NCBI GenBank assembly: GCA_016746295.1
Contig: JAEAOA010001935.1
Location: 356,430-420,429, forward strand
Direction: 5' to 3'
Origin: Potamilus streckersoni
Taxonomy: Eukaryota
DNA: 64,000 nucleotides
Part shown: positions 9,379 to 59,880 of the stretch, one piece after another
Numbering within the stretch: position 1 is the stretch's first letter
How the letters are laid out: every line of letters begins with the position of its first letter
Notes under the pieces: generated by a model
Told to the model about the DNA's origin: nothing
The model's input: only the letters and a program-made list of their open reading frames with translations
The model's database searches: none
Program-made: the position numbers and the translations under genes

Positions 9379-9638
9379 CTATCTTCTCTGATTTTGATTT
9401 ATCATCTTCACTTTTCTCTTCACTCTCATCATCTGCATCTGTATTGTTATTATCATCACTTTCACAATCAATGGGGTCTTTATTTCCAGTGTCAGTATCC
9501 TTTGCCTTTGCATTAATGATATTACTGTTCCCATCCTCCTTTGTGTGGCTCTTGTTCTTCTGATGTTCTTCATTTAATTCTATAAATGCCAATTTTCTTC
9601 CACTATGTTCAATTTTACAATGTTTTATAAGTTTGTGC
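9379..9638 (-). CDS. Internal coding exon (minus strand) of the large zinc-finger/AT-hook gene: ...HKLIKHCKIEHSGRKLAFIELNEEHQKNKSHTKEDGNSNIINAKAKDTDTGNKDPIDCESDDNNNTDADDESEEKSEDDKSKSEKI
   Basis: Acceptor ttttttatag|G at 9639-9648 and donor ATAG|gtaagtcc at 9371-9378 (minus sense); open frame in between; begins with 1 nt that completes AG|G (Arg) with the 2-nt overhang of exon 16127-15950; ends in phase 1. Confidence 0.55.
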
Positions 9639-10547
9639 CTATAAAAAAATAAAACAAATATAAGTTCCTATATAAAATAAGCCATCAATGCAGAAATTTT
9701 TGGGGTTTTAGGAAATGAAAATAATTTAATGAAACGGCAAGATAAATTTTTTGCTGATCTTATCAAAATCCTGTGCAAACTGGTCTGCAATTCACTGCTG
9801 GTAATTTTGTGAAAGGCAAGGCTTTATGGGTACAACTGGTATAAGGTTATCCTTTCACAAGTTCATTTGCTATATCAGTGAAACAGTTCTGTAAATGAAA
9901 ATCTAATACCAGTCAAACTCTTAACACCTTCCAAAATATAATCCTCAATAAGTTGTCAAGACGGTAAGTTGTAGATTTCCACTGCACAGGCCGTCATCTT
10001 CTAAAAGTCAAATTTATTCATTAAGCTGACATCAGGCCTGATGTAATTCTTCAGTAAAATTTCTTTCACCTGCTGTGAAATTAATGAATTCCTGCCCAAA
10101 ATAAATAAGCTCTCATACTGTCAGGTTCGTAATTACCATTGGTAATTTGGTGAAGTATATTCAGCTCAACTGGTCACAGACCAGAAATGCTTTTGTTATG
10201 ATCTCAATTGTCCACTGGCAAAAATTGGTTATCACTTGTTATTAAGGTTTACTTTCATTTGGACAAATATTGAAAATTCATTTGTTCAACATGAAACTGA
10301 GAAGGAAAACTTTTTAAATTTTTCAATCACTTGCTAGATGGTGTGAATGCAGATTCAGGGCTGACAAGTGTTTCTCTGTAATGAAAAGAATCTTCTGTCA
10401 AGAATATTGCCCACAATGTTTGTGAAGTCCATACTTTCTGCCAAAAGTTTCTTTTCCATGTTTTGATGAAGCTCATACAAGCTTTCTGTTCTGACTCTTC
10501 TTTATTATTAAACACTTGCCGCAGACTTGTATTAGTTACATTATCAA

Positions 10548-24631: not shown

Positions 24632-24959
24632 GTGTGTGTGATTTAGATTTGTAACGTAGCTTTAAAAATTTTTCAGTCATATCACTATGATGTCTGCCAT
24701 ATGACAGTTTATAATGATGTCTAGCACTGCAGCATAATGCTGCAGACATGTGGCATGATGTCCCACCTAGCCACCTGACACCAGGCCAATAAGTTCTAAC
24801 TTAAATCTTTTAATGCTGAGCGCCAAGTGAGGCAGCTGTTAGTACCATTTTTGAAGGTCTTTGGTACAATTAGGCCACGGTTCAAACCCGCGACATTGCA
24901 CATCAGAGGTGGACGTTCTACCTCTAGTCCACAGAAGCGGCCTATAAGTGAAACACCTG
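24632..24959 (-). mobile_element. SINE family A copy (target-site duplication about TAAGTGA)
   Basis: Collinear with the other family A copies; tRNA-like head ...ggccgcttctgtggactagaggtagaacgtccacctctgatgtgcaatgtcgcgggtttgaacc on the minus strand. Confidence 0.7.
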
Positions 24960-34021: not shown

Positions 34022-34323
34022 TTCAGAATTTTAACTTAGCTTTAAAAAAATTTCAGTCATATTGCTACGTGACAGTTCATAGTGATGTCCAGCACTGGGG
34101 CATCATGCAACAGACGTATGGCATGATTTCCCACCTAGTCACATTATCCTGATACCAGGCTGTCCAATCCTAACACTAACCTCTTAATGCTGAGCACCAA
34201 GAGAGGCAGCTGTTAGTACCATTTATTTGTTTAAAAGTCTTTGGTATGACTCGATGGGGGTTCAAACCTTTGAACTCCCACATCCAAGGTTGATGCTCTA
34301 ACAACTAGGTCACCAGAGCAGTC
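33985..34323 (-). mobile_element. SINE family A copy with a (GT)n/(AC)n tail; target-site duplication taagaaagaatta
   Basis: Direct repeat taagaaagaatta at 33968-33980 and 34324-34336; collinear body. Confidence 0.75.
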
Positions 34324-40068: not shown

Positions 40069-40441
40069 TCTACAATCTGTAGTGGACACTTAATCCCTTG
40101 CCTCATGTCCATGTTCACTGAAATTTGCAATATGTGTACCAATCATCTGATGACTGATGCCATTTCTAATAAGTCAGTCATTTTAAGATGTCACCCATAA
40201 TGCTCTCTACCAAACGTTGTGTTATCAAAGGAATGCTGATGGCAGGAAGCAGAAGAACAAAGCTTCTCTAGAACATGGTGTGGTACCTCACTTGAAGACC
40301 TTTCTGAGTACCATTCTAAGATTTTTCATCTCCATATCTGACTTGCAAAATAATTCACAAAAAAACCCCTAAAATTTCATTTGTTAGAGCATAAAACAAT
40401 ACATGACATGAATGCCATACTAGTTTTTTTCAAAAACTTAC

Positions 40442-40594
40442 CTTTATTATCTTCCTGGCATGGTAACAATTTCACTCTTTTGGAATTCATAGATACGGAC
40501 ATATAGCCTGGCTCTATTTCAATCTCTGGCAAACTTTCAGGTGATGAAGGTCTTTTTCTAGGTCTTCCAACACTTCGCTTATTTCCTGTTTCAT
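40442..40594 (-). CDS. Internal coding exon (minus strand) with an AT-hook: (D)ETGNKRSVGRPRKRPSSPESLPEIEIEPGYMSVSMNSKRVKLLPCQEDNK
   Basis: Acceptor ttccacacag|AT and donor AAAG|gtaagtt; 153 nt (2+150+1) open; GRPRKRP AT-hook core; paralogous exon at 45692-45543. Confidence 0.6.
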
Positions 40595-40786
40595 CTGTGT
40601 GGAAGAGACATAACAGTTCTGGGGTTAATTAACAGTTAATTCAGTAATCAAATGAAAAATGAAGCGCATACAAACTTTTGACTATAGAGTGCATTTAAGA
40701 TCATTTGCCAGAAAGTCTTCAATGTTTACATGTGTAAATAACTTAGTGTAGTTTGCCAACAAATTGTTTCCAAAATATGTAATTGT

Positions 40787-41092
40787 GTGTATGTGAGTGT
40801 TTTGGAGTTTTAATGCAGCTTTAAAATTTACATATTTATTGCTATGATGTCCAAAAAGTGGCAGTTAATAGTGATGTCTAGCAATGGGGCATCATACTGC
40901 TTACATGCAGCATCCACCCAGACACATTATCCTGACACCTGGCCAAACACTAACCTCTTAATGATGAGCACCAAGCGAGGCAACTAATAGTACCATTTTT
41001 AATAACTCTTTGGTATGATATGGTTAGGGTCAAAACCATTACGTCCGACATCTGAGGTGGATACCCTAACCACATAGGCCACCAGAGCAGTC
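40787..41092 (-). mobile_element. SINE family A copy inside duplication unit A (paralogous copy at 45878-46201 in unit B, so its insertion predates the duplication)
   Basis: Collinear with the other family A copies; present at the equivalent position of both duplication units. Confidence 0.7.
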
Positions 41093-43070
41093 AATTTAAC
41101 AAAATAAGGTCAAGACAACACTTAGCTATAGCAAGGACTGTGGAACCAGCACCTGATTGAATGTGGTATGTGATATGTTTTTCAAATACTAACATCTGAG
41201 CAAGGCAGCTACTAGTACCATTTTTATAAATCAATTGCATGACATGGCTGATGTTCGAAACAATGACCTACCGCATCTGAAGTGGATATTCTAACCAATT
41301 AGAATATTGATTTGATTTAAGAAGAAATGGACGGACATAACCACTTATTTGAAGTGGATCTGAGAAGAAAAAGTATGCATAAGATAAAAAAAATACTTGG
41401 GTTAACTTGGGATTAAGAAAATCTGACACAGCACGGTGTTATATTTTCATGCTTACAATGGTAACATATCAAATCTTGAGTGCCAGCTTTTGAGTAAAAT
41501 TGTTTGACACATGGATGTTTACGATCAAAATTGGATTAATTCATCCATATGTGAAAAACGGCATGGTATCTCAGTTCATAGGAGAAATTAAATGGCTCAT
41601 AATGTTATGAAACAATGATATCAGATTTTAATGGAACCCAAAAATGATTAGGAGCAGCATCTTTGAAGATTCATTATAATTCAGATGATTTGGTATAGAA
41701 TAATTTTTGCATATAATGGTGGCATTGGGGATTCAATATATCAATTTGGATTTGTGGATATTTCTTCCTACAAGGTTCTGAAAAGCTTGAGTTTCACAGA
41801 AAAATGCCTTTTTGTAAACAACTGATGAAACATCTGGCTTTCAAATTCCTGCTCCAACCATACCCAATGGCATACATTTTTAATACCTCTCTTGTTATCT
41901 TCAGAATTCTTATTTGCTCTTTCAAATATGTAGCTCACCACCAGAATGATGCTGCTTCTTATATATGATCATAATTAGGACTAATTAGGTGAAAACGGTT
42001 CTGAATGAATTCAACCTGCACTCTGGTGGCAAAATCGCAGGGCACACCAACAGAAAACAACCCCTACCATTTTTCCCCTGTAAATTTATTTAAATCTTTG
42101 TACTACACCTTTATTTTAAAAAAGTCTCATGTATGTGAAAACATGTCTTTGTTAATCACTAATTTTGGGTCTGGTTCGGTGATACAAATGTAGAAAATAT
42201 GTAAGTACCATGACTGAATAATTAACATCAGGATCATTGAAAAGCTGATGACCATAAACTGATACATGTTTATGAGGTCTCTAAATGATCAATTACGACA
42301 AGGAGAAAGCAGAAATAATAAGTCATAAGTGTCAAAACCCTCCAAAGAGAGACCAATCTGGTCTGATATGAATTTCATTAAGCAGATGAGAATAAAATCA
42401 CTTTTTAAAGCTAAAGTAAGCAAATTACATGTGTAACATTTTTGCTTTTGGAGGCTGGATTTACAAGGTAAGGATGATCTGATATATTTTGAATAAGGAA
42501 TTTTCCTAGCAAAGCACCAACAAAGTTTTCTAAGTCTAGATATAATAGGTACAAAAAATATTGCTAAAAATAAAAAAATCTCTTTTGTACAAAAATTTGT
42601 TAACAATGACATTGAAAGTGCAACAAAAGAAAATACAAAAGCTATTTGAGCTTGAAAATGAAGTCAATGCAACCTACTTTTAGTGTGGTTGAATTACACC
42701 CACTGACAGACACCAACATAACAATTTTCATGTGCAGGTGAAAATGGATCTAGGATAGTGACGGTGTAATGATTCATCTTGAATCTAAGTAAATGAACAA
42801 ATGCACAGACAAAATGTAAATCATAACTTTGTTGATGAGGGATAAAATTCTTAAGGTGGTGACAAGCTCAGCCGCCAATATAGCCGCTGAACAGAATAAT
42901 CCAACATAATGACACAAATTACTGCAACTCGAAAGCTACACTGCTTTTAATTTTTGCATTTTCGTATGCTGTTTGAATTTAAGTATAAATTTTGATTCCT
43001 GAGTCTACTGACCATTATTTTTTACTTCTGAGCCTAAAAATCTAAAAAAAATGAAAATTTGAAATCATAC

Positions 43071-43196
43071 CCCTGTTCTGGTTCTTGTTGTCTTGCCCAC
43101 TACCTGGACTACCTGCTGGTGACTTAATGCTTTTCTCTGCCACAACAGATGATTTAACATCATTATCCTTCTCAGCTTGTGCCTGTGAGGCATGTT
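43071..43196 (-). CDS. Internal coding exon (minus strand): (E)HASQAQAEKDNDVKSSVVAEKSIKSPAGSPGSGQDNKNQNR
   Basis: Acceptor tcaacag|AA and donor AGGG|gtatga; 126 nt (2+123+1) open; phase-compatible with exon 45692-45543 upstream (G|AA = Glu) and exon 40594-40442 downstream (G|AT = Asp); paralogous exon at 58128-58003. Confidence 0.55.
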
Positions 43197-43419
43197 CTGT
43201 TGACATGAAAATAAAATATAAATACTGCATTGCTTATGAAATTAGCATCTTACATCCATATCAGCTACAGTACACAGAGATAGACTAACCATTATTCATT
43301 TGTGCGAGTGTAGTTGTCATCTAATTGTTCATCACTATACAATGTAATATCCAAGCATAACAAGCATGGGTCTGCACTCCAGTGTATTATTACTTCCTGC
43401 AAGGCCTTTGAAGATGGAG

Positions 43420-43565
43420 TAAAATATACCAGGTAATTTACTTATCTGGCAATGTGAACCCCAATCAGGTAATTTACCTATCTGGCCATGTGGACCCCAA
43501 TCAGGTAATTTACCTATCCAGCCATGTGGACCCCAATCAGGTAATTTACTTATCTGGCTAAGCAG
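43420..43565. repeat. 36-bp tandem repeat (caggtaatttacctatccagccatgtggaccccaat), 4 copies; a paralogous array sits at 58400-58545
   Basis: Direct read; each unit contains a CAG|GTAATT / AG|GTAAAT splice-donor-like motif on both strands. Confidence 0.8.
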
Positions 43566-43664
43566 ACACCAATCAGAGTGAGTAATGCCTGATGGAATTA
43601 ATACCTGTTGAATGAAATAAAAGAACAGTCTGAACCATTCCAATATATGTCTCAAAATTACATT

Positions 43665-44500
43665 GTACATCACTCTTCACAAACACAAATACAGCATGGT
43701 CCATCAGCAATATGAATGTACATTGTACATCACTCTTCACAAGCACAAATGCAGCATGGTCCATCAGCAATATGAATGTACATTGTACATGATATGAATG
43801 TACATTGTACATCACTCTTCACAAGCACAAATGCAGCATGGTCCATCAGCAATATGAATGTACATTGTACATGATATGAATGTACATTGTACATCACTCT
43901 TCACAAGCACAAATGCAGCATGGTCCATCAGCAATATGAATGTACATTGTACATGATATGAATGTACACTGTACATCACTCTTCACAAGCACAAATACAG
44001 CATGGTCTATCAGCAATATGAATGTACATTGTACATGATATGAATGTACACTGTACATCACTCTTCACAAGCACAAATACAGCATGGTCCATCAGCAATA
44101 TGAATGTACATTGTACATGATATGAATGTACACTGTACATCACTCTTCACAAACACAAATGCAGCATGGTCTATCAGCAATATGAATGTACATTGTACAT
44201 GATATGAATGTACACTGTACATCACTCTTCACAAGCACAAATACAGCAAGGTCCATCAGCAATATGAATGTACATTGTACATGATATGAATGTACACTGT
44301 ACATCACTCTTCACAAGCACAAATACAGCATGGTCCATCAGCAATATGAATGTACATTGTACATGATATGAATGTACACTGTACATCACTCTTCACAAGC
44401 ACAAATACAGCATGGTCCATCAGCAATATGAATGTACATTGTACATGATATGAATGTACACTGTACACCACTCTTCACAAGCACAAATACAGCATGGTCC
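43665..44500. repeat. ~82-bp minisatellite (…atcactcttcacaagcacaaatgcagcatggtccatcagcaatatgaatgtacattgtacatgatatgaatgtacattgtac…), about 10 copies; absent from duplication unit B
   Basis: Period of about 80 bp read from recurring 'cactcttcaca'. Confidence 0.85.
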
Positions 44501-45099
44501 ATCAGTAATGTCATAAAACATGTTTGGGTCATCATCTACTTATATACATATAAATGTGCAGGCCAAATTTCATTTGCAACAGAGTTAAAAATGAAGTCCA
44601 AAGATCTGGACAAATTTTCAAAATTTATATAATGGCCTGAAAATCTAATCTGATAATCTACTACAAACTTCTAGGGATGGCACAATCCATCCAAAGAGGT
44701 GATTAATATGACAGAATTTTGTTCAAGATAGATCAAAATATGGCTGCAAAAAAAAGCATACAATGTCACTAACAATGTTTATAATGTAATATCAAAACTG
44801 GATTGCTCAAACTTTTAAGCCTCCAAAGTAACAAAAAAATCTGTCCCAAATATTGACAAAATTCAAAATCCTGTCCTCAGTACAGAAAAAAAAAAAAACT
44901 GTCAAATGTATCCCATTTCTGGTATGTCAGTCATTTTAAGCTGCCACCCATAATACTTTCTTCCAAATTAGTACGAAATTGGGGCCGAGATTTTGAGAAG
45001 TCATTTAAAAATGGACTAATAAACAGATACATCACACACAGAAGATGCAGTGCCCTATTGTAAAGATCATATGGGATCAAAAGAATGCTGATGGCAGGA

Positions 45100-45350
45100 A
45101 ACAGTTGTTATGGGGTTTAATGACATTTTTCAGTACAAGATAGTTTATAAATGGAGGCCAGCATAAATGGTGAAGAAAGAACCGGGGAAAACCCCTGAAA
45201 GAACAACCAACACACGAGAAACTACTTGCATGCTCTCTCATGTACATATATTGCTGAGCCGGAGACTCGATCCCATGCAGACAGATGTGAGATGACAGTG
45301 ACATATAACGGTGAGTACTTTAAACCACTCGGCCACTTGGGACCTTACTG
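45100..45350 (-). mobile_element. SINE family B copy inserted into duplication unit B after the duplication
   Basis: Absent at the orthologous point of unit A (40225: ggcaggaagcagaagaac continuous); flanked by ggaaacag/ggaagcag-type short direct repeats. Confidence 0.7.
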
Positions 45351-45542
45351 GAAGCAGAAGAACAAAGGTTCTGGAGAATGTAGTGTGGTACCTCACTTGC
45401 AGACCGTTCTGTGTAACATTCTAAGATTTATCATCCCCATATCTGACTTGCAAAATAATTCATAAAATAAACTAAATTTCATTTCTTAGAATGTAAAGCA
45501 TAACATGACATGAATGCCACACTAGTTTTTTCATCAACTTAC

Positions 45543-45692
45543 CTTTATCTTCCTGGCTTGGTAACAATTTCACTCTTCTGAAATTCATAGACATGGGCAT
45601 GTAGCCTGGCTCTATTTCAATCTCTGGCAAACTTTCAGGTGATGAAGGTCTTTTTCTAGGTCTTCCAACACTTCGCTTATTTCCTGTTTCAT
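45543..45692 (-). CDS. Internal coding exon (minus strand), paralogue of 40594-40442 with an AT-hook: (D)ETGNKRSVGRPRKRPSSPESLPEIEIEPGYMPMSMNFRRVKLLPSQEDK
   Basis: Same acceptor and donor as its paralogue; 150 nt (2+147+1) open; one codon shorter. Confidence 0.5.
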
Positions 45693-45877
45693 CTGTGTGG
45701 AAGAGACATCATAACAGTTCTGGGGTTAATTAACAGTTAATTCAGTAATCAAATGAAAAATGAAGCGCATACAAACTTTTGACTAAAGAGTGCATTTAAG
45801 ATCATTTGCCAGCAAGTCTTCAATGTTTACATGTGTAAATGACTTAGTGTAGTTTGCCAACAAATTGTTTCCAAAAT

Positions 45878-46201
45878 CAGTAATGTGTGTGTGCAAGATT
45901 TGGATTTTTAATACAGCTTTAAGAAATTATCCAGCTATTTTGCAATGATGACTGCAAAGTTGCAGTTAATAGTGATGTCTAGCAATACTGCATCATGCTA
46001 CATACATGCAACATCATGTTTCACACAGTCACATTATCCTGACACCAGGACAAACACTAACTTCTTAATGCTGAGCACCAAGTAAGGCAGTTACTAGTAC
46101 CATTTTTTTAAAAATCAATTGCATGACATAGCTGATGTTTGAAACCATGACCTCCCACATCTGAGGTGGATACTCTAACCACTTAGGCCACCAGAGCAGT
46201 C
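45878..46201 (-). mobile_element. SINE family A copy in duplication unit B
   Basis: Paralogous to 40787-41092. Confidence 0.7.
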
Positions 46202-46639
46202 AATTTAACAAAATAAGATCAAGACATCATTTAACTGTAGCAAGGACTGTGGGAACCAACACCTGAATGAACAGAAAATAAAGGTGGAATGCAATACGTT
46301 TTCAAGCCAATAACGAAGACACTTTTCTACAAGAGGAATCATGCACATCTGGTGCAGACAACATAGCAGACTGTATTTGGGCTGTAACACGGGAGTCAGA
46401 CAGGAATCTTGTTCTTGCAGTTCTAGAGGAAAGAATCATATGGCTTGGACAAATGATTGTATTCCAGGAAGATAGGCAATTAAATAGTTGTTGACATTGC
46501 ATCATTTATATTTAACCCCATGTTGATATGACCATCGATTTAGAACAAACAGCAATAAGAAGATTCTGAAGATGGCTGCTGGTGTCCATTAGAATGTCTC
46601 AGCATTTTCATCCAGGACAAGCTTACAGTGAATTTGTTC

Positions 46640-47040
46640 AAGGCAATTCTTAGAAGTATTTTAGGAGGAGTAGTGATAACAAGGTACAGTGAATGTATTC
46701 ATGGTAAATCTTCCAAGCATTTAAGGAGGAGAAGTGATAGCAAGGTACAGTGAATGAATGCATGGTAAATCTTCCAAGCATTTTAGGAGGAGAAGTGATA
46801 GCAAGGTACAGTGAATGAATGCATGGTAAATCTTCCAAGCATTTTAGGAGGAGAAGTGATAACAAGGTACAGTGAATGTATTCATGGTAAATCTTCCAAG
46901 CATTTAAGGAGGAGAAGTGATAGCAAGGTACAGTGAATGTATTCATGGTAAATATTCCAAGCGTTTTAGTAGGAGTAGAGATAGCAAGGTACAGTGAATG
47001 TATTCATGGTAAATCTTCCAAGCATTTTAGGAGGAGTAGT
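46640..47040. repeat. 60-bp minisatellite (aggagaagtgatagcaaggtacagtgaatg[aa/ta]t[g/t]catggtaaatcttccaagcatttt), about 6.5 copies
   Basis: Direct read. Confidence 0.85.
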
Positions 47041-50000
47041 GATAGAAAACTAATGGGCATGCGGATGTCAGGCCATTCCACAATATCTTCCTGCTTATGA
47101 CCAATGCGTGAAAATGAAAACATTTTGAGTATTTTCAAATATAAATCAGTTTATCATAAATTTCACCAATCTTCCAATCCAAAGTTTGTTTGGAAGTAAC
47201 TGATTTGTTAAAAGAGCATTCTGACGTAAATCATTCTTTGAAATAAAACAGCATTCAAATATTCCCTTTAGAATCAAGAAGTACCACCCTTAACTCAGCC
47301 AATAAAGTCGCTCTCAGTTACAATCTTTGTCCAGCGTGCTCCAAAACTAATGATGTGATACATTTGACAAATTCCGTCAGTGACTAATCTAACAACAACA
47401 TTTACATGTGGTACAAAAATTGATTTAAGAAGAAATGGACGGACATAACCACGTATTTGAAGTGGATCTGAGAAGAAAAAGTATGCATAAGATAAAAATA
47501 AGACTTGGGTGAACTTGAGATTAAGAAAATCTGACACATATGGTGTTAGATTTTCATGTTTACAATGGTAACATTAAATCTTGAGTGCCAATTTTTGAGT
47601 AAAATTGGTTGACACATGGATTTTCATTATCTAAATTGGAATAATTCATAAATATGTGAAAAACGGCATGGTATCTCAGTTCATAGGAGAAATTAAATGG
47701 CTCATAATGTTATGAAACAAGGATATCAGATTTTAATGGAACCCAAAAATGTTTAGGACCAGCATCTTTGAAGAGTCATTATAATTCAGATGATTTGGCA
47801 TAGAATACTTTTTGCATGTAATGGCAGCATTGGGGCTTCAATAAATCAATTTGAATTTGTGGATATTCATTCCCACAGGCTCCTGCAATGCATGCCTTTC
47901 ACACAAAGATACCTTTTTGTAAACAACTGATGAAACAGTTGGCCATTAAATTCCTGCCCCAAACATACCCAACAGCATACATTAGTACCTCTCTTGATAT
48001 CTTTGGAATTCTCATTTCCTCTTTCAAGTATATAGCTCACCACCATAATGATAGGACTAACTAGGTGAAAATGGTTCTCAGAGATCTCAAAAACGCTTAA
48101 TTACGTGTACTTGGACGCAAATATTTTATTGGGATTCAGAAAATCACCCACACTGGAGTCCTCCGAACGCATGTTTTTGTGGCAAGGAGGAAACTTTTGT
48201 GGCAAAATAAATATGTTCTCTAATCACTATGAAAACTGAAGCAATGCTTTTATTTTAGTTTGTTGCTGACTTTTTTTATGAAAGGTGCATGTGTTATTGA
48301 AGGCGCTGCTATAGGTTCCCTTTGAATGACAAAACAAATACCCACTTGCTATTGCTGCAGCAACATCAAATGAATTGTAGAACATTCACACAATTTTTTA
48401 AAATAATTTCCTTCAGAGGTAATCAGTTTTCATTGAAGTTGCAGAAAAACTTTTTTGGTTGTTTTTTTTCTTTATTTTTTTTTAAAATTGCTATTGTGTG
48501 GTCGACTGTAGTCATTTCACGTTTCCGCCCTCAGAGGTGGTCGATTGTAGCTAGTTAGTTGCATGGCTAGTTTGATTATATTACAGCATACATTATCAAA
48601 GATATCAGCATAAGCAGATTATAACATAACAAATAAAATTTAGGTTAGTTGGTCAATATCAAATAAGGATTTATTTATGTAACAATTGATTCCAGTTCAT
48701 TTTTATATCCATATTTGTGGCTTCCTGTCATTGTGCCTTTGAATTTCTCCACTCCAAACTCAAGACTGTATATACCATTTTTATCAGCCAAAATGTTGTA
48801 GCCAAATATATGGCCAGATGGTATATTTTGTTGTCAATACAGTCAAACCCGGTTATCTCGATTACGTCGGGGGTGTAAAAAAATCGTCGACATAACCGGG
48901 TCCCGAGATATCCGGGTTCATAAAAACAGGTAATTTTAAAAAAGTCCTTGAGCATTACTCCCGTCTCTTGCTGGTGTTTATTGGAATCCCCTCCCACTGC
49001 ATGTTACAATAAAATAAACAAAACACTTAATTGATAATAAAATGAAATGAACTAACCTGGTGTTTTTATCATTTATTCCTTTTTTATCATCATAAGTAAT
49101 TTATTAAAGAAAAAATATATGAACTCCTTATATCACATGTAGCGTATGCATCCATTACTGTAGTGTGCATCACTTATATCAGATAACACACGACGCATTT
49201 TTATAATCAATGTGAATATTGAAAAACAAATCATGTATGGTTGTACTCAGAGGTTTAAATATGTTATCAGATTGAAAAATGGATCAAAGAATATCACAAA
49301 CGAGAGAGTGAGAGAGAAACATCCACCAATTGCTTTCAGGCACCCGCCATTCACCCGTAACGCGGTGTTAGGTGCAAAATAACCAAGATTGTATTATATC
49401 CAGGTTAATATATGACAGTATCTCGCAGATAAAGATCAATAAATGTTTTTGAAAATACATGTATATGTACATTGACTGTGAGTGCAAATGGCCCTCCTTT
49501 CGCTAGTATGGGTTACAAAGAGTATTTATTAAAGCAAGTTAATGTTGAGTAGACTATTTACCCCACTGGCATCAATGCGAGTTTGTATCAATTATGATTC
49601 CTGATGGCAAATAAATAGATGCATGGGTGGGGAATAAACACATCCGTTGGCGAGCAGTAAACTAATTCTTTGAACTTACCGGCAGGATATCAAATACAAA
49701 GGTTATTTTATTGCAAAGCAAACCGACCCTGGAAACCGACTTTTGATTCTTTCAAGTGTGCCGATTCTTTTTTTTCTTTTCTGTTGGTTTTTTTTTTTTT
49801 TTGCCAACTTGGGTTTGCCTTTACTGGTATTCACAGGAATTTTGAAAATAAATTAAAACAATGGAAGCCAATTTTTCTGCCCGACTTAAATAAGTTATAT
49901 TACAAATAAGAAAACAAAACAAAATTAAGAAGACCTCAAGCATGAGAACTAAATTATGGGGCCTCGACTGCTATTGTATAGAAGCCAAGTGCCTGAGATT

Positions 50001-50125
50001 ATCCATTGGCATGCATATATATGAGCATATATATAAGGTGATATTCTGCCTAGAAATTAATCTGTTCTGTTTATTTTCTGTTGACAAGTACATGTATATG
50101 CTGTTTCATGAGAGAGAAAAAAAAA

Positions 50126-51026
50126 ATGTTCCAAAAGAGAAAGCTTTCAAACCAAAACATTGAACTGAAGTATAAAATTTTGCTACAACTTGAAAAAGGC
50201 GAAAAGTGTGTTGATTTGGCAAAAAGTACAACATTCCATCAAACACTATTACCGGCTGGAAGAAAAATGCTGATAAAATCAAAACTACTTATGAACTTGG
50301 ACAATTTGGTCCCGATAGAAAGAAAATGCGTTCCGCAAAGTTCGATGATGTCGACGAGGCAACACTAAAATGGTTTAAAAACGTCCGTGCCGAAAATATC
50401 CCAGTAGACGGCCCTCGTATCCAGCAACAGGCTGAGAAATTTGCAAAAGACTTGGGACATGAAACATGGAAAGCATCACATGGCTGGTTAGATCATTTCA
50501 AACAGCGCAATAATATATGTTTTAAAACCGTGTGTGGAGAGAGAGCATCTGTTTCAGATGTGGCTGTTAAGGAATGGCATAAAGAAGTTTTGCCAAAAAT
50601 TTTAGACAAGTTTAAGCCATGCGATATATACAATGCTGATGAAATGGGGCTAGTTTGGCAATGTCTGCCTAACAAGACGATGGATTTCAAAGGAAACAAA
50701 TGCCATGGAGGAAAAAAATCCAAAGAGAGAGTAACTTTGCTTTTGGCCGGAAATATGGATGGAAGTGACAAGATCAAGCCATTAATAATAGGAAAATCAG
50801 AAAATCCAAGATGCTTCAAAAACCTGAATAGGTCTTCTCTCCCAGTTGACTATAAAAGCCAGTCAAATAGCTGGATGACAGGTGACATCTTTACCAGCTG
50901 GTTACGCAAGTTAGATCGCCACTTAGAGTTTGAAAAACGAAAGATCGCATTGATAATAGGCAACTGACGTGCTCACCCACATGTAGAAGGGTTACAAGCA
51001 ATCACAGTGTATTTTTTTCCTCCCAA
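50126..51026 (+). pseudogene. pogo/Tigger transposase, N-terminal two-thirds (CENP-B/psq HTH: MFQKRKLSNQNIELKYKILLQLEKGEKCVDLAKS..; HTH_Tnp_Tc5 and start of the DDE domain: ...ATLKWFKNVRAENIPVDGPRIQQQAEKFAKDLGHETWKASHGWLDHFKQRNNI...ERVTLLLAGNMDGSDKIKPLIIGKSENPRCFKN...RKIALIIGN*RAHPHVEGLQAITVYFFPPN), inactivated
   Basis: Frameshift near 50225 between ORFs 50081-50368 and 50326-50967; in-frame TGA at 50965-50967 inside the conserved LLLDNxxAHP motif; coding sequence cut at 51026/51027 by the hAT insertion. Confidence 0.75.
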
Positions 51027-51382
51027 CAGGGTTCCTGCAGTCTTAACCAAAACAAATTCCATGACTTTTCCAAAACTTTTCCAGAGACATTCAACAAAAC
51101 TCAAGGACCGCGCTCTCTTGCATTATCAAGTAAAATGAATATAAAGAATGACATCTTTCAAAGAAAATAACAAATAAGTTAACAACAAATATTTTTAATA
51201 TGTACATTTTAAATTTACCTGGGTTTGCACACATTGACTTCATGCAGTAATTCATGTTATAATCCAATTTTCAATGTAATTTGTATTCAAAAGTAAAAGA
51301 GAAACAATTCTATGTAGTTTATGTATGTGTTCATATTTACAATATTAACAAAACATGTCACTTTCCAGTTGCTTTCTTGTAT

Positions 51383-53707
51383 TTAGAGAGAAGCCAACTT
51401 TTTCTGCTCTATCTCCTTTTCAATGTCCTTTAGAGACTCTTGTTTCACTTTTGCAGTCTTTCGGAGAGAATTGGACGCAGTTAACAGGCTTAGGTTATTG
51501 TCCTTTTCAGCTTGTTCAGCATTTTCATCTGCTAATTTGAGCAATTGCTGGATGTCATCTATTAATCTAATTCTTTTATTTAAGATGTCACCCAGCTCAA
51601 GATCTGCTTTTCGTTTTCTGCTCCTCTCACACTCATCCCTCTTTTTCTTTTCCTCATCCAAGTACTGTCTGTATGCATGTCTAGCATTTGAAGCATAGGT
51701 TAACATTTCTTTACTAATATTTACATTTTCAATGCCTCCTACACTCCGAATACCATCAATAATGATTCTTCTTGAAATGAGAGACAACTGCTTTTGGTTA
51801 TCTCTTATGGCTTCTTTGTTCATGGATAATCCTCGTTCAACATCTGCCTGGCCATGAGACAGAGTTAGAAGATGTTTTACAACTGGCCACAAGACAGCAT
51901 ATTCCTTTTTGTTTGCCATCAAAGAATGAAAAAATGAATCTAAGCGGTCTTTCTGTCTGGAGAACTGAGCAAATTTCACAGAGTCTTCCAATTTCAAACA
52001 ATTTTCCAAAAAGGATTTGTAGTTTTTAGCCAGGGCATCACATTGGTTTGGATCTATTCTTCCATTGTTGACTAGAATTTTGACCAGTGAGTGGAATGAC
52101 TGAATGCTTGTCTTTATATCCTTCATCATCATCTCTGGGTTTAAGCATGTCATATGTCTTACAAGTGCAAAAGTCACTGGTGATTTTGTCAGCAGTTTTG
52201 TGACAGCAGCTTGGAGGAATTTCCTGCAATCAATACGGAATGACAAAATGTCCCTATCTGTCAATTTCCCTGATTTTTTTAAGTCTGCAATCACAGTCAT
52301 TGTCACAAAGCCAATTTCAATCATTGCAGGGTCTTTAAGATGTTTGCAATTTGTTAGATCCAATTTTATGAGCTTTGATGCCTCTGTGATAAGGTCCAGA
52401 TGATCTTGAGCTACAAATCGCTCCATAAGACCCCTGATCATTTTGAAAATGTCTTCGGCAAGGAAAGGCAGCAATGGAGTGTCTCCTTGAAATTCCTGTA
52501 AAAATGGCTCAAACTCTCTAGCCACTGAAAGGAAAAACTGTGCTTGAGGAATGAAGAGATGAGACTTAATCACTTCCTTTAGACTCTCAAATGATTTTAA
52601 TTTTGGGTGCTTTTTAAGCGACTCAATATATGTTGCTAGGTATGGAAGGAGGGATATGACTTTCTCTACAACTGTGATATTCTCAAGCCACCTGTGCTTA
52701 CAGAATTTTGGTGGCAGCTCCTTGTTACCAGATACTTTTTGATAGTCCTCTATTCTGGCTGGAGAATCTTTAAAGAAGTAATAGAGATTGCTTTGTGTCT
52801 CCTCCAGATTCCACTCTGTGGCAGTGCAACCATGCCTGAAAGCATTATGAATTAAATGCAGGCTGCAAGATTCTGTTGGCAACAACGACTTTCCAGGATT
52901 TAAACGATTAATCTCTGCATTCAACATGTCAAAGGTTTTCCAGTTAACATTAGGTCCATCCATTGAAATTTGGAGGAGGTTCCTGGTGCCAAGATCTTGG
53001 ATGATTGGACACAACTTGCCAAAAAGATCATCTGCAGTGGCATGTCCCAAAAACTCAGATGTTAAAAATCTTGTCTGCACTCTTTCTGCACCCTGTTCCC
53101 AAAATCTGACATGAATGTCACATTGCTTTTGGCGCAATTGTTTATTCAAACTTTCATCGAACTGCAAGACATATCCATCACACTTGCGTATGCTATCTTT
53201 TAAGGTTGATGTAAAGTATGGGGATAGGCCATGAATAGCAATATAACTTGTTTTGTCATAACCGCAAGTGAATTTGTTTGCAATTGCACTGTCTGGAAAC
53301 ATTAGTGAAAAAACTTGTGAAATTTCCTCATTGGAATTAAAGGAGCTGTGTGTATTCACTGTCCTTGATGTCCACAAAATTTCTGCCTTTAATACATCAT
53401 TTGATGATGTATATGACGTTAATGTTGGGGCAGGCTTTGGCGTACCTTTAGGTAATGGTGAGGCTAAAGGTGAAATAAAACCAAAGAGTGTGTTGTTCTG
53501 AGCAGATTTCATTATTTTACAATTCTGCACATGCTTCTTGCTGGTGGAATGACTTTTGAGGGCAGCTTCTCCCATATTTGCAATATCTATAATTTTGCTA
53601 CAAGCTCTGCATTTAGCAGTCCTTGGGTCTGAAGCATTCTTCTCCGCCCATTTTTCATAGCTTGGGTTAGTCAGCCATCTGTTATTGAATGTGCACATGC
53701 CAGGCAT
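51383..53707 (-). CDS. hAT-family transposase, 774 aa, intronless and intact: N-terminal CxxC...H...H zinc finger (KCRACSKIIDIANMGEAALKSHSTSKKH), DUF4371-type core (..LQFDESLNKQLRQKQCDIHVRFWEQGAERVQTRFLTSEFLGHATADDLFGKLCPIIQDLGTRNLLQISMDGPNVNWK..), C-terminal hAT dimerisation motif (..LWPVVKHLLTLSHGQADVERGLSMNKEAI..) and a coiled-coil tail
   Basis: Single 2,325-nt ORF on the minus strand with no stops; motif pattern FDES…/…VERxxS characteristic of hAT (Ac/Buster/Charlie-like) transposases; lies centrally within an element with TIRs. Confidence 0.8.
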   Translation of the reverse strand: MPGMCTFNNRWLTNPSYEKWAEKNASDPRTAKCRACSKIIDIANMGEAALKSHSTSKKHVQNCKIMKSAQNNTLFGFISPLASPLPKGTPKPAPTLTSYTSSNDVLKAEILWTSRTVNTHSSFNSNEEISQVFSLMFPDSAIANKFTCGYDKTSYIAIHGLSPYFTSTLKDSIRKCDGYVLQFDESLNKQLRQKQCDIHVRFWEQGAERVQTRFLTSEFLGHATADDLFGKLCPIIQDLGTRNLLQISMDGPNVNWKTFDMLNAEINRLNPGKSLLPTESCSLHLIHNAFRHGCTATEWNLEETQSNLYYFFKDSPARIEDYQKVSGNKELPPKFCKHRWLENITVVEKVISLLPYLATYIESLKKHPKLKSFESLKEVIKSHLFIPQAQFFLSVAREFEPFLQEFQGDTPLLPFLAEDIFKMIRGLMERFVAQDHLDLITEASKLIKLDLTNCKHLKDPAMIEIGFVTMTVIADLKKSGKLTDRDILSFRIDCRKFLQAAVTKLLTKSPVTFALVRHMTCLNPEMMMKDIKTSIQSFHSLVKILVNNGRIDPNQCDALAKNYKSFLENCLKLEDSVKFAQFSRQKDRLDSFFHSLMANKKEYAVLWPVVKHLLTLSHGQADVERGLSMNKEAIRDNQKQLSLISRRIIIDGIRSVGGIENVNISKEMLTYASNARHAYRQYLDEEKKKRDECERSRKRKADLELGDILNKRIRLIDDIQQLLKLADENAEQAEKDNNLSLLTASNSLRKTAKVKQESLKDIEKEIEQKKLASL

Positions 53708-54514
53708 GTTGGACTAAACCTAAAGCAATAAAAAATGAAAGATTTTCAGATTTAGCTGTCATTATGGGATATTGTGTATTTTATTATGTATTCAGAGTTT
53801 TCTAACGGTCCAATGTTCATTAAGTAATTATTTTTATAATCTTTTGGCCAGACTTAGAATCTAAGATTTAGTTAATATAATATTATGTAGTCTTGGTTAT
53901 TTGAAATTAAAATACAATTTTCAGACAATGACAATTCTTTTCTTTAACTTTAACAAAAATTCATTAAGTATCCTAGTAACAGCAACACTGAAAATGCCAT
54001 CAAAGTTTACCAGATACAGAAAAATGTTTGATTAAAGTTAAACTATAATGGTAGTAAATATGTTTTATCCTAACATGGCAACCCTCTTGAAAAATGGAAG
54101 TCAAATTTCCCACACTGTAATATTACTGGAATTTTGACTGAAGTCTTCTTGCAATTTTTTTTTTATTTTGAATTCAAATATTTTTCTTTCTTCAATACAC
54201 GATCTATTCTAGTATTTATTTACTATAAATATTTATTTTTATTGGGGTTTTGGAAAATCGGGTGAATTTAATTGGGAGACAAAGACAGGTCTAATATTAA
54301 AACAGTTCTCTTAAATTTTATTCAGTATGGTTGGCTGGTCAACTAAAAACAGCTTCCGATTGAAAACTATAGTTTTTTAATATTCTGAAATGAATGTAAA
54401 GTAACTGCCCAAAATAAGAATATGAAATTTACAATAACAATTATAATCAGGTCGTACCGTACCATCTGCCATAATAAAAGAATGAATATGCCATATGAGA
54501 TGTTACGACAGACC

Positions 54515-54960
54515 CGAAAAAAAAGAGAAATATAAACGAAACCAAAATTAGTGTTTACCATGTGCATTAGATCGAGAAAATAAGTGACTTTCTCGGAAGA
54601 AATTAACTTTGTTTTGATATATCGTGAAGTGTTAATTGCTCAAAATGGTGCAGCAAACAACATTAATTTCCCTATGGAACTACAAAGTAAATCACGTGAG
54701 ATATACTGTTAGGGAACTTACTCTTGTTATACAAAATTAAGAGATAAATATAAATGAAACCAAATTAGTACTTACCTTGTACCTTAGATTGAAGAAATAA
54801 CAGACATTTTGGGAAGAAATTGGCTTCCTCTTGATAGACCTTCAAGCGGTTTTTGCTCAAAGCGGCGCGGCTGTTCATTTGAATTTTCCAATCGAACTAC
54901 ACCGGAAATCACGTGATACTACTGTTAGGGTCACTTACTCTTGTTATATTTAATGAAACC
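54515..54960. repeat. Subterminal ~220-bp tandem repeat (2 diverged copies) in the 5' non-coding region of the hAT element (upstream of the transposase ORF)
   Basis: 54515-54735 vs 54736-54960 share gaga(a/t)aaatataaa(c/t)gaaaccaaa(a)ttagt..ttacc.tg..cttagat.ga(g/a)aaataa...ttt.ggaagaaatt..ct...ttgata.a.c.t.aag.g......gctcaaa..g..g..c..tt.a..ttcc.at.gaactaca..g.aaatcacgtga.a.tactgttaggg.acttactcttgttata; shorter 25-bp direct repeats aaattccatgacttttccaaaactt at 51052-51076 and 55043-55067. Confidence 0.7.
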
Positions 54961-55169
54961 ATTTATCGATCGTAATTTTATCGTGTTTTATTTAATCGGT
55001 ACTCGTTGAAATTTGGAGTAATCAATTTTTTAACTCCATTGTCAGAAATTCCATGACTTTTCCAAAACTTAGCAAGGTTTTGACAAATTCCATAAATTTT
55101 CAAGGCCCTTGAAATTTATTTTCTAATTTCCAAAACTTTTCCAGGATTCCATGACCCGCGGGAACCCTG

Positions 55170-55777
55170 TCCCAATGCTACCAGTAAACTTCAGCCACGC
55201 GACCAAGGAATAATTCAGGCTTTTAAAATCCAATATCGGAAAGCTTTAGTTTGCAATTATTTGCTTGCAGTTGAGGAAAAGCGATCATATAAACCAACTC
55301 TGCTAGACGCCATCATGTATGCCCGTGCAGCTTGGAACAGTGTATCGCCGAAAACCATTAAAAACTGCTGGTTCCATTGTATTCTTCCGGAAATTTCTGA
55401 TGAAGAATTTCACCAGCAGTGTTTAATTGCACAAGAAATTAAAGAGCCTCAAACAGAAATAGGTCTTGAAGCGATGGCTGATGAGATTGCGGACTCCATA
55501 GGCATTTCATTTTCACGTGGATGATAATGCCAATGCCTATGGTGAACTTACTGATGAGGAAATAATTCAATCGGTGACAATGAAGCAGATACGATCATGC
55601 AAGCAAGATGATGATGATGATTAGCCTATCACTATCCCAAGCTACAGTGAAATGGCTGAATGCATTCAAAAAATGAAATTGTTTGTGGCGAGTGTCGACG
55701 GTGCCGAGCATATGTATGAAAACGTAAGTGCTTTTGAATCGTTCGTTACAAATCAGCACCGGAGTAAACAAATGTAG
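55170..55777 (+). pseudogene. pogo/Tigger transposase, C-terminal third (..ATSKLQPRDQGIIQAFKIQYRKALVCNYLLAVEEKRSYKPTLLDAIMYARAAWNSVSPKTIKNCWFHCILPEI..., then after a frameshift ..DDNANAYGELTDEEIIQSV...PITIPSYSEMAECIQKMKLFVASVDGAEHMYENVSAFESFV)
   Basis: Continues the pogo frame interrupted at 51026; conserved LQPLDQGII / DAI..A..AW..V...I.NCF motifs; at least one further frameshift near 55500-55525; stop TAG at 55774-55776. Confidence 0.7.
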
Positions 55778-57199
55778 ACTGATATTACTTCATATTTTCT
55801 ACAAAAATAATGCAGTGCACATTATGATATGTTTATGTACTTGTGTGTTTTATAGATGTATAGATTCAAAATGAAAAAAGTATTCATTTTTTATTCATAT
55901 ATAGTATGCGTTTATTGTACATGTACGTGTAGGTAATTTTACCATATATTTTTGTATTTCCACTACATTATGTTCAGTTTATAATTCCTAGATATTTTGA
56001 AAATATTGCTGACATGTTTGGCTATTTTGTCATAAAATGCAATACAATAAATCGTCATGATATTAGGTGCAAATGGAACAATTTCATCACCTGAATGAAT
56101 ATTCAGCCGACCAGCACTTTTCCGTCTGCACATTGATTATTAATGTGTACATGTACATAATATTTCATTACTTGTATCTCCTTGATTGTAGTTTCTTGTA
56201 TATGTACTTCGGAACATAATTCATATCTTAAATGTACCTTAAGAAATAAAAGGGAAATGATAAAATACACATGTAGCTAACATCTAAGATTCTGTGTTTT
56301 CGTAAAATAAAGTTACATTGTAATTTGTGCACACTCTTGTCTTTGTGAATTTCTGAATATTTTATGTAGTGAACATGATATATTCTTAATAAACTAATCA
56401 ATTAAGCTACTTTTACAAATCAAAAATAGAAAGAATATGAAATAAACATGTGACTACTGCCAAAACAGACCAAAATTGTTCCTGAAAATCTATCGCTTTT
56501 GCTGACTATTTATTGTACAATTTCTGTGAGATTGACGTTAAAAAGTTGCATTTCGTCGAATTAAGCGGGTCCACATGTTACTTCGGACCGAAACTTATGC
56601 CCGACATAACCGGGTTATCGACTTAACAGAGGTCGAGATAAACGGGTAAAAAATAGCATAACAGAAAAGAATTTTTTCGGGACCGGACTCAAACGCTCGA
56701 CATAAGCGGGTTGTCGAGATAACCGAGGTCAAGATAAGTGGGTTTGGCTGTATGTAAAACATAATTGCAATTTGCGACATTGGCAAAGCCCAGCGCAATC
56801 ACTGTTATTGATTTCATTTCCGGTTATTGCCGTATAAATATTGCCTGCGAACTCAAAATCAAGAGACTTGGACAATATGTTATTTGCAAATTTAGACAAG
56901 TGTTTTGTAGTTAAACGTTAAAATGTTGAATATTTCAATGAGATTCAGAACTGTGCTAAAGTTGCTATAACTGATAGTTCGGATGCGACCGTAGCCAAGT
57001 GTAAGAAAGTACGTGATTTCTGGCTATGTGGGGACTGCAACTTTTGCTGGTGGGACTCTAATTTTTACCAAATTAGGAGTCCATTTTCCTAGTTTTAAAA
57101 TCCTAGTGAGACCTCTGGTTCTGAATATATTTCAACCTGTACTCTGTTGGCAAAATCACAGGGCACACCAATGGAAAAAATTAACCCATACCATTTTTT

Positions 57200-57203
57200 C
57201 CCA

Positions 57204-57250
<47 letters not shown>
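57200..57250. repeat. (TA)n microsatellite
   Basis: Direct read. Confidence 0.95.
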
Positions 57251-58002
57251 CAGAAATTCATTACAAAAAGAAGTCTCATGCCTATGAAATAATGTCTTTG
57301 CTAATCACTGATTTTGGGTCATACAAATGTAGAAAATATGGAAGTACCATGACTGAATAATTAACATCAGGATCATTGAAAAGCTGATGACCATAAACTG
57401 ATACATGTTTACGAGGTCTCTAAATGATCAATTATGATATAATAGGTACAAAAAATATTGCTAAAAATAAAAAAGTCACTTTTGTACAAATATTAGTTAA
57501 CAATGAACTAATGTGGTAAAGTAACTAAGATATGTATCTACACGTCAAAATCCAAGACAAGAAGGTGCAACAAAACAAAATACAAAAGCTATTTGAGCTT
57601 GAAAATGAAGTCAATGCAACCTACTTTTAGTGTGGTTGAATTACACCCACTGACAGACACCAGCATAACAATTTTCATGTGTAGGTGAAACTGTATCTAG
57701 GATAGTGATGGTGCAATGATTCATCTTGTAACTAAGTAAATGCATAAATGCAATATCCAATCATGACTTTGTTGATGAGGGATACAATTCTTAAGGTGGT
57801 GACAAGCTTAGCCACCAATATAGCTAATTAGTATAGCCAGTGTAGATCACAGATTATTTAGACTTGAAAGTTAAACTGCTTTTAGTTTTTGCATTTTCGT
57901 ATGCTGTTTGATTTTTTTTAAAAAATTTGATTCCTGAGTCTACTAACCATTATGTTTACTTCTGAGCCTAAAAATCTAAAAAATAAAAATTTGAAATCAT
58001 AC

Positions 58003-58128
58003 CCTTGTTCTGGTTCTTGTTGTCTTGCCCACTACCTGGACTACCTGCTGGTGACTTAATGCTTTTCTCTGCCATAACAAATGATTTAACATCATTATCC
58101 TTCTCAGCATGTGCCTGCGAGGCATTTT
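58003..58128 (-). CDS. Internal coding exon (minus strand), paralogue of 43196-43071: (E)NASQAHAEKDNDVKSFVMAEKSIKSPAGSPGSGQDNKNQNK
   Basis: Same acceptor tcaacag|AA and donor AAGGG|gtatga; 126 nt open; phase-compatible with exon 60052-59881 upstream (G|AA) and exon 45692-45543 downstream (G|AT). Confidence 0.5.
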
Positions 58129-59880
58129 CTGTTGACATGAAAATGAAATATAAATACTACATTGCTTATGAAATTAGCATCTTACATTCACATCAGCTTA
58201 AGTACACAGAGATAGACTAACCATTATTCATTTGTGAGAGTGTAGTTGTCATCTAATTGCTCATCACTATACAATGTAATATCCAAGCATAACAAGCATG
58301 GGTCTGCACTCCAGTGTGGTGTGTCTTTTTATATGTGATAGATTTATGATAGGCTGTATTATTACTTCCTGTAAGGCCTTTGAAGGTGGAGTAAAATATA
58401 CCAGGTAATTTACTTATTTGGCTATGCAGACCCCAGTCAGGTAATTTACCTATCCAGCCATGTGGACCCCAATCAGGTAATTTACCTATCCAGCCATGTG
58501 GACCCCAATCAGGTAATTTACCTATCCAGCTAAGTGGAACCCAATCAGAGAGAGTAATGTCTGATGGAATTAATACCTGCTGATTGAAGGAAACATACTA
58601 ATATACCAGTCTACTATTCCTTCTACATATAATGTTTCAAGCAAATAGGGTGGAACTTGATCTACTATCACATAATTAGTATGTTAAACATAAATACATT
58701 AACCAGAAATTCTCCTTCTGGACATTAATGTCTTTACCAACAGTTCTTTGTCACACACGGCATACAGCCAGAAAAATTTGGACTAGATTTGTTTGAAAAG
58801 CTCATATGCCCCATTACCCTACCTCAAAAGTCCCCAAAACAATGTTTTTATTGTATTTAAGATAATGTTGTAAAACATGTTTGGGTCATCATTTACTTAT
58901 ATATATAAATGTGCAGGCCAAGTTTCAATTGCAACAGAGTTAAAAATGAAGTCCAAAGATCTGGACAAATTTTCAAAATTTATATAATGGCCTGAAAATC
59001 TAATCTGATAATCTACAACAAACTTCTAGGGATGGCACAAAACATCCAACAAGGTGATTATTTTTACAGAATAATGTTTAAGATGGATCAAAACATGGCT
59101 GCAAAAAAAAAAAACATACTATGTCACTAACAATATTTATAATGGAAAATTAAAACTGGATTGCTGAAACTTTTAAGCATCAAAAGAGACAAAAAACTAT
59201 GTCCCAAATATTGACAAATTTGTCAAAATCCTGTCCTCAGTACACAAAAAAAACCTCAGAATCCTGTCCTCAGTACAAAAAAAGCTGTCAAATCAAGCCC
59301 TTATTACTGACAAAACTGTCAGACTCCATAGTCTGAACACATGATAAAGATTGCTAAAGATCATCAATGGCACAAAAATCTACACCTATACAAAAACATA
59401 CATATTATACCCATTTTGCCTAATTCATGCAGTTTCTACTTAAATCTTGATAGGCAATGTTTCTAGATATTTTAATGGCTTGTATACAAAATCTGGCTAT
59501 CTATATACAGTGAGAAATGTGCCTACTGAATTTTACCTGTCAGAGTTAGGCAATTTTTACATAATCATGCCAACAAGGTTCATAATGAAAGGTGCTAACA
59601 AGCTTCCCAATACAGATGTAGAGATGAAGAGGGACAAATTAAGATGCTCTCAATAGAGAAAACACAACAGAAACATCAAGAATAGATTAAATAATTGTTA
59701 ATACTTGCTTTCCCCTGCTACTTCTTGGTATATACTTTTCTTTAAACCTAGTACCTCTAAAAATATTTCCCTTATTTAAAACTTGAGTACAAAAATGCCA
59801 AAACATTTGCAACTGCAATGGTTTAGCATTGTAAACCTGCATCTTTCATCCCACCCACCCATTCAACCTCAGGTCAATAC

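Follow-up and report, generated by a model that had tools for sequence, protein, structure and literature searches.

The stretch of Potamilus streckersoni DNA analysed here, 64 kb of contig JAEAOA010001935.1 (hereafter the window, numbered from its first letter), is AT-rich and repeat-dense with a GC content of ~0.30-0.39, and contains a tandem duplication of a ~4.8-kb segment in which only one copy, unit B, is enlarged by a stack of transposable elements. From the outside inwards, the stack comprises a non-coding element with terminal inverted repeats (TIRs) at 48079-57117, a pogo/Tigger element at 48840-56750 and a hAT element at 51027-55169 that interrupts the coding sequence (CDS) of the pogo transposase. 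The boundaries, TIRs and target-site duplications (TSDs) of the three layers can be read directly from the DNA, and we consider it very probable that three cut-and-paste DNA transposons were nested sequentially in unit B after the duplication had taken place, as a first, sequence-only reading of the window had proposed.

To delimit the duplication, the region at 39-45.2 kb was compared by BLAST with that at 44.8-60.5 kb, which placed units A and B as a direct tandem repeat with an identity of 84-91% per high-scoring segment pair (HSP) and a Kimura two-parameter (K2P) distance of 0.10 over 3,271 aligned sites. Unit A (40157-44893) is empty for all three nested elements. The left part of unit B (44910-48078) is colinear with A 40157-41996 and ends in a copy of GTTCT at 48074-48078, and its right part (57118-59253) is colinear with A 41997-44893 and begins with a second copy of GTTCT at 57118-57122. 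The HSPs in unit B (44910-48052 and 57117-59253) are separated by ~9.06 kb, compared to 46 bp in unit A, and ~9.04 kb is present in B only. A dispersed repeat resembling a short interspersed nuclear element (SINE) at 45958-46201 in unit B has a counterpart inside A at 40802-41161, and the window has no fewer than five copies in all, the others being at 34073-34323, 24643-24852 and 1940-2105. The presence of the repeat in both units as well as elsewhere in the window fits a SINE insertion predating the duplication, as had been suggested. ARAGORN found no tRNA gene in 38000-60000, a range covering the copies in both units, indicating that the repeat is not recognisably tRNA-shaped to that program. 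Each unit also carries a private minisatellite that arose after the duplication, one of 82 bp x 9.8 copies with 98% matches in A (43710-44509) and one of 61 bp x 6.9 copies in B (46624-47045), and B has a (TA)22 microsatellite (57205-57248) a short way downstream of the outer insertion, at a position whose equivalent in A is non-repetitive.

The hAT element is 4,143 bp long and lies on the minus strand, antisense to pogo, with TIRs at 51027-51038 and 55158-55169 (TIR CAGGGTTCCYGC) and the termini CAGGGTTCCTGC at 51027 and GCGGGAACCCTG ending at 55169, which form the sole exact pair in the window. It is flanked on both sides by a perfect 6-bp duplication, TCCCAA (51021-51026 and 55170-55175), for which the chance probability is ~1/4096. 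Deletion of the element in silico together with one TCCCAA yields a single reading frame across the junction (ITVYFFPPNATSKLQPRDQGII / LQAITVYFFPPNATSKLQPRDQGIIQAFK), in agreement with the claim of the sequence-only reading that the pogo frame is restored exactly by this excision, and places the insertion point in the DDE_1 coding region of pogo, between the codons for ...PPN and ATS.... Relatives of the pogo element were recovered on contigs from other samples, two from the European Nucleotide Archive (L003 and L012) and two from the Joint Genome Institute (JGI; L008 and L013). In all four, the pogo sequence aligns to the window in two HSPs, from the 50-kb region to 51026 and from 55170 into the 56-kb region, which overlap by exactly the six nucleotides TCCCAA, indicating that these copies represent unoccupied sites for hAT insertion. 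An ancestral hAT-pogo chimera, the outcome that the sequence-only reading had set against sequential insertion, is thus excluded by four independent pogo copies lacking the hAT. The hAT boundary at 51027 is also seen in a contig carrying a related hAT element (L001), which matches the window from 54190 to 51027 at 92.6% and then diverges, the next two bases being AA in place of the TT of the window.

The pogo element that was interrupted is itself sharply bounded and heavily decayed. Its ends read TA|CAGTCAAACCC...GGGTTTGGCTG|TA, the sole exact TIR pair of this kind in the window, which bears out the proposal that it sits at a TA dinucleotide within the outer element. The 5′ part (48840-51026, plus strand) contains the TIR CAGTCAAACCC, a 15-nt end motif in three copies and, from the CDS start at 50108, the N-terminal two-thirds of a transposase pseudogene. 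The 3′ part (55176-56750, plus strand) continues with the C-terminal remnant of the transposase as far as 55810, has the end motif in six further copies and closes with the TIR GGGTTTGGCTG followed by TA. The window has nine copies of the 15-nt motif, TCGASATAASCGGGT, where chance predicts 0.05, and every one of them falls within the first 78 or the last 195 nt of pogo, indicating that the two ends belong to one family. The coding remnants match the Pfam domains HTH_Tnp_Tc5 (5e-16) and DDE_1 (3e-21), and the four relatives described above are 95-97% identical to the window copy. One of them, L008, encodes an intact 526-aa transposase with CENP-B_N, HTH_Tnp_Tc5 and DDE_1, all three of which are present in the intact relative P0248. 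The relatives are annotated as Tigger4-like. Fragments from Sinanodonta woodiana and P. streckersoni belong to the 90%-identity cluster of the pogo transposase protein, which makes a unionid freshwater mussel the most likely source. Compared to the intact L008 CDS, from which it differs by 2.7% (97.3% identity), the window copy has a 1-nt deletion at ~50220 and a 20-nt deletion at 55506, both causing frameshifts, and in-frame stops at 50965-50967 (TGC>TGA, the first), 55622 and 55775. Adjoining the first stop, the catalytic motif IIDNC has become IIGN*, with a substitution of D by G. With two frameshifts, three stops and this catalytic change relative to the intact 526-aa relative, the window pogo is dead; the sequence-only reading had recognised the decay and understated it as frameshifts and a stop. 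The element shares the TA TSD, the CAG... TIRs and the CENP-B_N, HTH_Tnp_Tc5 and DDE_1 architecture of pogo/Tigger elements of the Tc1/mariner superfamily, in particular those that are Tigger4-like, and differs from them in being a pseudogene split by a hAT and in its length, 3.76 kb, 1.27 kb of it lying upstream of the ORF (open reading frame). The copy in L012 has the same 3′ terminus, GGGTTTGACTG|TA, followed by an unrelated flank, indicating that pogo is mobile independently of the outer element.

Given these junctions, the order of nesting would hold even if the layers had not come together at this locus. The stack, or its inner two layers, could have been assembled elsewhere and have arrived in one step, either as pogo with the hAT aboard, mobilised in trans, or as the outer element with both inside it. 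The TIRs of pogo and of the outer element are intact enough for recognition in trans, which leaves room for such an arrival. It is nonetheless improbable, as none of the four other recovered pogo copies carries a hAT, as composites of 7.9 kb or 9 kb are large and therefore poor substrates for cut-and-paste transposition, and as the several private lesions of the window pogo fit a long residence. Successive arrival of the layers at this locus remains the preferred reading.

The outer element, 1,126 bp long without the pogo insertion, is present in unit B and absent from unit A, as had been claimed for one of the two duplication copies. Its left arm (48079-48839, plus strand) begins with the TIR CAGAGATCTCA at 48079-48089 and ends in the TA used by pogo, and its right arm (56753-57117, plus strand) ends with the TIR TGAGACCTCTG at 57107-57117. 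As an inverted match, CAGAGATCTCA agrees with CAGAGGTCTCA at 10 of 11 positions, with one mismatch, and this is the sole exact-pattern pair in the window; with the ends fixed, an inverted match of 10/11 between the termini has a chance of ~1e-5. Directly outside both ends stand the two copies of GTTCT, which provide the best-fitting TSD, of 5 bp, and at the corresponding empty site unit A has GTTCT only once. When 48079-57122 was excised in silico and the result compared to unit A by BLAST, a single HSP crossed the junction, aligned to A 41312-42295, so that the empty site is seamless and colinearity is restored. An extended TIR search found no inverted similarity of the arms beyond the 11-nt TIR, and no ORF of at least 80 aa lies wholly within the element.

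These data refine two statements of the sequence-only reading. It had correctly placed the start of the outer element at 48079 and had placed its end at 57114, where the best inverted-repeat model gives 57117; we prefer the end at 57117 with a 5-bp TSD over that at 57114, which entails a mismatched 8-bp TSD and a much poorer TIR, a choice that one copy cannot settle. It had also called the element MITE-like. MITEs (miniature inverted-repeat transposable elements) are usually shorter than ~800 bp and non-coding, have TIRs and a TSD, and occur in a high number of near-identical copies. The outer element has a TIR (10/11), a TSD and no internal ORF of 80 aa or more, and its 1,126 bp exceed the usual length of a MITE. 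The label is therefore loose, given this size, the TIR of only 11 bp and the lack of a second copy in the searches made, and non-autonomous TIR element is a safer name. In its CAGAG termini and, under the best model, its 5-bp GTTCT TSD, the single copy resembles the hAT5 group, and we tentatively describe it as hAT5-like.

The short TIR, without extended similarity of the arms, and the lack of another copy in the window or the metagenome scans could also indicate that the outer element is no transposon, being instead an indel specific to unit B, or a segment precisely lost from unit A, with short inverted termini that are fortuitous. We regard this as very unlikely, since the boundaries defined by unit A coincide exactly with a 10/11 CAGAG inverted repeat and with a GTTCT duplication that is single in A, a conjunction with a chance of ~1e-5 times 1e-3. 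Loss from A is further opposed by the fact that excision of DNA transposons usually leaves footprints, and A shows none. Insertion of a transposon into unit B therefore remains the better account of the outer layer.

The nesting and the in-silico excision at every layer support the proposed order of duplication, outer element, pogo and hAT, and suggest the following sequence of events. A segment of ~4.8 kb with the SINE-like repeat already aboard would first have been duplicated in tandem, after which the 1.1-kb non-coding element with CAGAG... ends would have inserted into unit B, most likely with the 5-bp GTTCT TSD of a hAT5-like transposition. A pogo/Tigger element would then have entered the TA within the outer element and decayed there, and an autonomous hAT6-type element would finally have inserted, in antisense, into the DDE_1 coding region of pogo. 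By what is known of hAT and pogo transposition, this last insertion would have involved a 6-bp staggered cut, the repair of which gave TCCCAA on both sides. The hAT is the youngest layer. Divergence agrees with this order, as units A and B are separated by a K2P distance of 0.10, pogo differs by 2.7% from its intact relative and has five disabling lesions in addition to the catalytic substitution, and the hAT is intact. Dating of the layers by the identity of their TSDs and TIRs was rejected because these are only 2-6 nt and 11-14 nt long, respectively, and carry no usable signal; of the earlier claim that the insertions are datable, the relative order therefore holds and divergence-based ages do not, absolute dates being underivable from repeats this short.

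A number of points weigh against this account or against parts of it. The 5′-most 580 nt of pogo (48840-49417) are covered by none of the other recovered copies. As a transposon family, the outer element is represented by a single locus, a second copy having been found neither in the window nor in two metagenome scans: the pogo-empty junction TTGTTGTCAATATGTAAAACAT had zero matches in the JGI metagenomes, and the 5′ terminus CAGAGATCTCAAAAACGCTT had one match, of 21 nt only, in a GC-rich bacterial contig, which appears random. Its TSD can be read in two ways, as 5 bp with the 10/11 TIR or as 7-8 bp, in which case the TIR is poorer. Among relatives of the hAT element, a copy from a sea urchin (CAGGGTTCG) has a TSD that can be read as 5 or 6 bp, and no TSD could be resolved for the relatives in Ptychodera and Physella. 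Finally, we can only infer present-day activity of the hAT element.

The hAT element contains an intact, single-exon ORF for a 774-aa transposase with a hAT fold (51383-53707, minus strand). The sequence-only reading had described the ORF as still open, and its alignment from end to end with homologues indicates that it is indeed full-length. Sequence searches gave no hAT match. Pfam at E<=10 returned only a sub-threshold CEP104 zinc-finger match for the ORF, phmmer against PDB returned no match, a 27-sequence profile searched against PDB gave coiled-coil noise only, and no hAT family was present among the 25 listed (of 33) Pfam families matched at E<=1 by 27 homologues. In a fold search, however, Hermes was the only match to the protein, which, like Hermes, combines an RNase-H-like DDE catalytic core with a large all-alpha insertion domain. 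The inner element is thus confirmed as a hAT by its fold, and the label cannot be confirmed by sequence. Compared to Hermes, the hAT transposase of Musca domestica (PDB 2BW3, 4D1Q and 8EDG), the window protein is only 12-13% identical, is associated with a 6-bp rather than an 8-bp TSD and has an additional C-terminal coiled coil.

At least 390 homologues, typically of ~770-830 aa, were found at E<=0.001 among 8,000 candidates scored, and these come from echinoderms, hemichordates, molluscs, ticks, insects and fishes, with a Pfam domain in none of the 120 listed. An exact look-up of the window ORF in the contig collection returned no record. Residues invariant across the family are D184/E185, D250, H284, R339/W340 and E624/R625, with C281 nearly invariant, and these we read, against the classical hAT blocks, as the DDE triad together with the CxxH and RW motifs. 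The motif SHGQAxVERGFS resembles, by eye, the C-terminal dimerisation domain of hAT transposases (Dimer_Tnp_hAT), without a match in Pfam, and weak matches to zf-BED, the model for the N-terminal zinc finger of hAT transposases, were obtained for 10 of 27 members (best E 0.018), in which context H53 and H59 are invariant and C33 and C36 nearly so. Beyond the hAT core, a C-terminal coiled coil of ~110 residues (residues 666-773; 51383-51710) is conserved, with A733 and E734 invariant. Against the closest relatives (L001, L002, L006 and L007; 91% amino-acid identity), the ratio of nonsynonymous to synonymous substitution rates (dN/dS) is 0.28 at a dS of 0.14, indicating divergence between functional lineages rather than decay.

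The ends of the element are conserved along with its protein. Over ~50 nt at each end, the sequence is shared among bivalve, sea cucumber, sea urchin and acorn worm copies, with CAGGGTTC and GTCATGGAA / CTGGAAAAG motifs (window 51027-51096 and 55100-55169; L004 1840-1909 and 6606-6675; L005 3305-3374 and 7758-7827; L010 8511-8580), despite the transposases of these phyla being only 37-44% identical. A further motif, TTCCATGAC, stands in the same strand orientation at both ends, 51054-51078 being identical to 55046-55070 at 25 of 25 positions, and the 5′ non-coding region of the element contains two tandem repeats of ~213 bp (54521-54731 and 54739-54948, minus strand) that are 75% identical to each other and also occur in L006. 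The TIRs CAGGGTTCCTGC / CAGGGTTCCCGC are short and begin with YARNG, as in hAT elements, and the TSD has 6 bp in place of the canonical 8 both in the window (TCCCAA) and in a copy from Holothuria leucospilota (L004 1840-6675), which has the same TIR, CAGGGTTCC, and the perfect 6-bp TSD CATGAG.

A TSD of this length has precedent, the groups hAT5 and hAT6 (for hAT6, Kapitonov & Jurka 2007, Repbase Reports, cited in PMC12730594) being documented exceptions to the 8-bp TSD. The window element shares with hAT6 the hAT-fold DDE transposase, the CAGGG termini of YARNG type and the 6-bp TSD, and differs in that its family escapes the Pfam hAT models and has the C-terminal coiled coil of ~110 residues; it is likened to hAT6 by TSD and fold. 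Since hAT families with 6-bp TSDs are already known as hAT6, the window element would be a new member of a known group. This copy has matched TIRs, a full-length ORF and, at either end, the subterminal motifs typical of the family, and it may still be mobile. The stronger proposal, that it is a currently active member of a metazoan-wide lineage not covered by Pfam and marked by the 6-bp TSD, the C-terminal coiled coil and the ~50 nt of shared ends, is conceivable and in our judgement doubtful; if true, it would offer a candidate transposon tool for molluscs and a case for studying how hAT enzymes set the stagger of the target cut. That the 774-aa ORF is instead a domesticated, hAT-derived gene retained by the host, as might be read from its dN/dS and from homologues annotated as plain uncharacterized proteins in many animal genomes, is scarcely credible, given that the ORF is enclosed by matched TIRs and a perfect TSD within another transposon, that the subterminal repeats are where contigs of its relatives break, which multi-copy sequence would lead one to expect, that the termini are conserved alongside the protein across phyla, and that active transposon lineages commonly show purifying selection between them.

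As a nested insertion, the stack is clean but ordinary, the phenomenon being routine in animal genomes. Relative dating by nested insertions already has an established method in TinT ('transposition in transposition', PMC3014933), and the present analysis reasons in the same way, taking an inserted element to be younger than the one it interrupts; TinT orders families from thousands of nests, whereas the single locus here gives local order only. The stack contributes one neat local case, together with annotations for three families. More useful than the stack itself is the hAT6-type family. Its 774-790-aa transposases, found in many animal phyla and labelled only as 'uncharacterized protein', have no hAT model among the Pfam families listed, so that domain-based annotation pipelines will probably miscall its members as host genes. 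The apparently complete copy described here, with both of its ends, could seed a proper family model.

Two further elements were observed that are separate from the stack. On the minus strand of the window, 31907-32792 contains a reverse-transcriptase fragment (Pfam RVT_1, E 1e-15), presumably from a decayed retrotransposon lacking long terminal repeats (non-LTR). In the Physella acuta contig L011, an unrelated hAT-like MITE of ~950 bp (9595-10547) with CAGGGGTCTCC termini and a perfect 8-bp TSD, ACCTAGAT, lies ~2.4 kb downstream of the Physella homologue of the hAT transposase.

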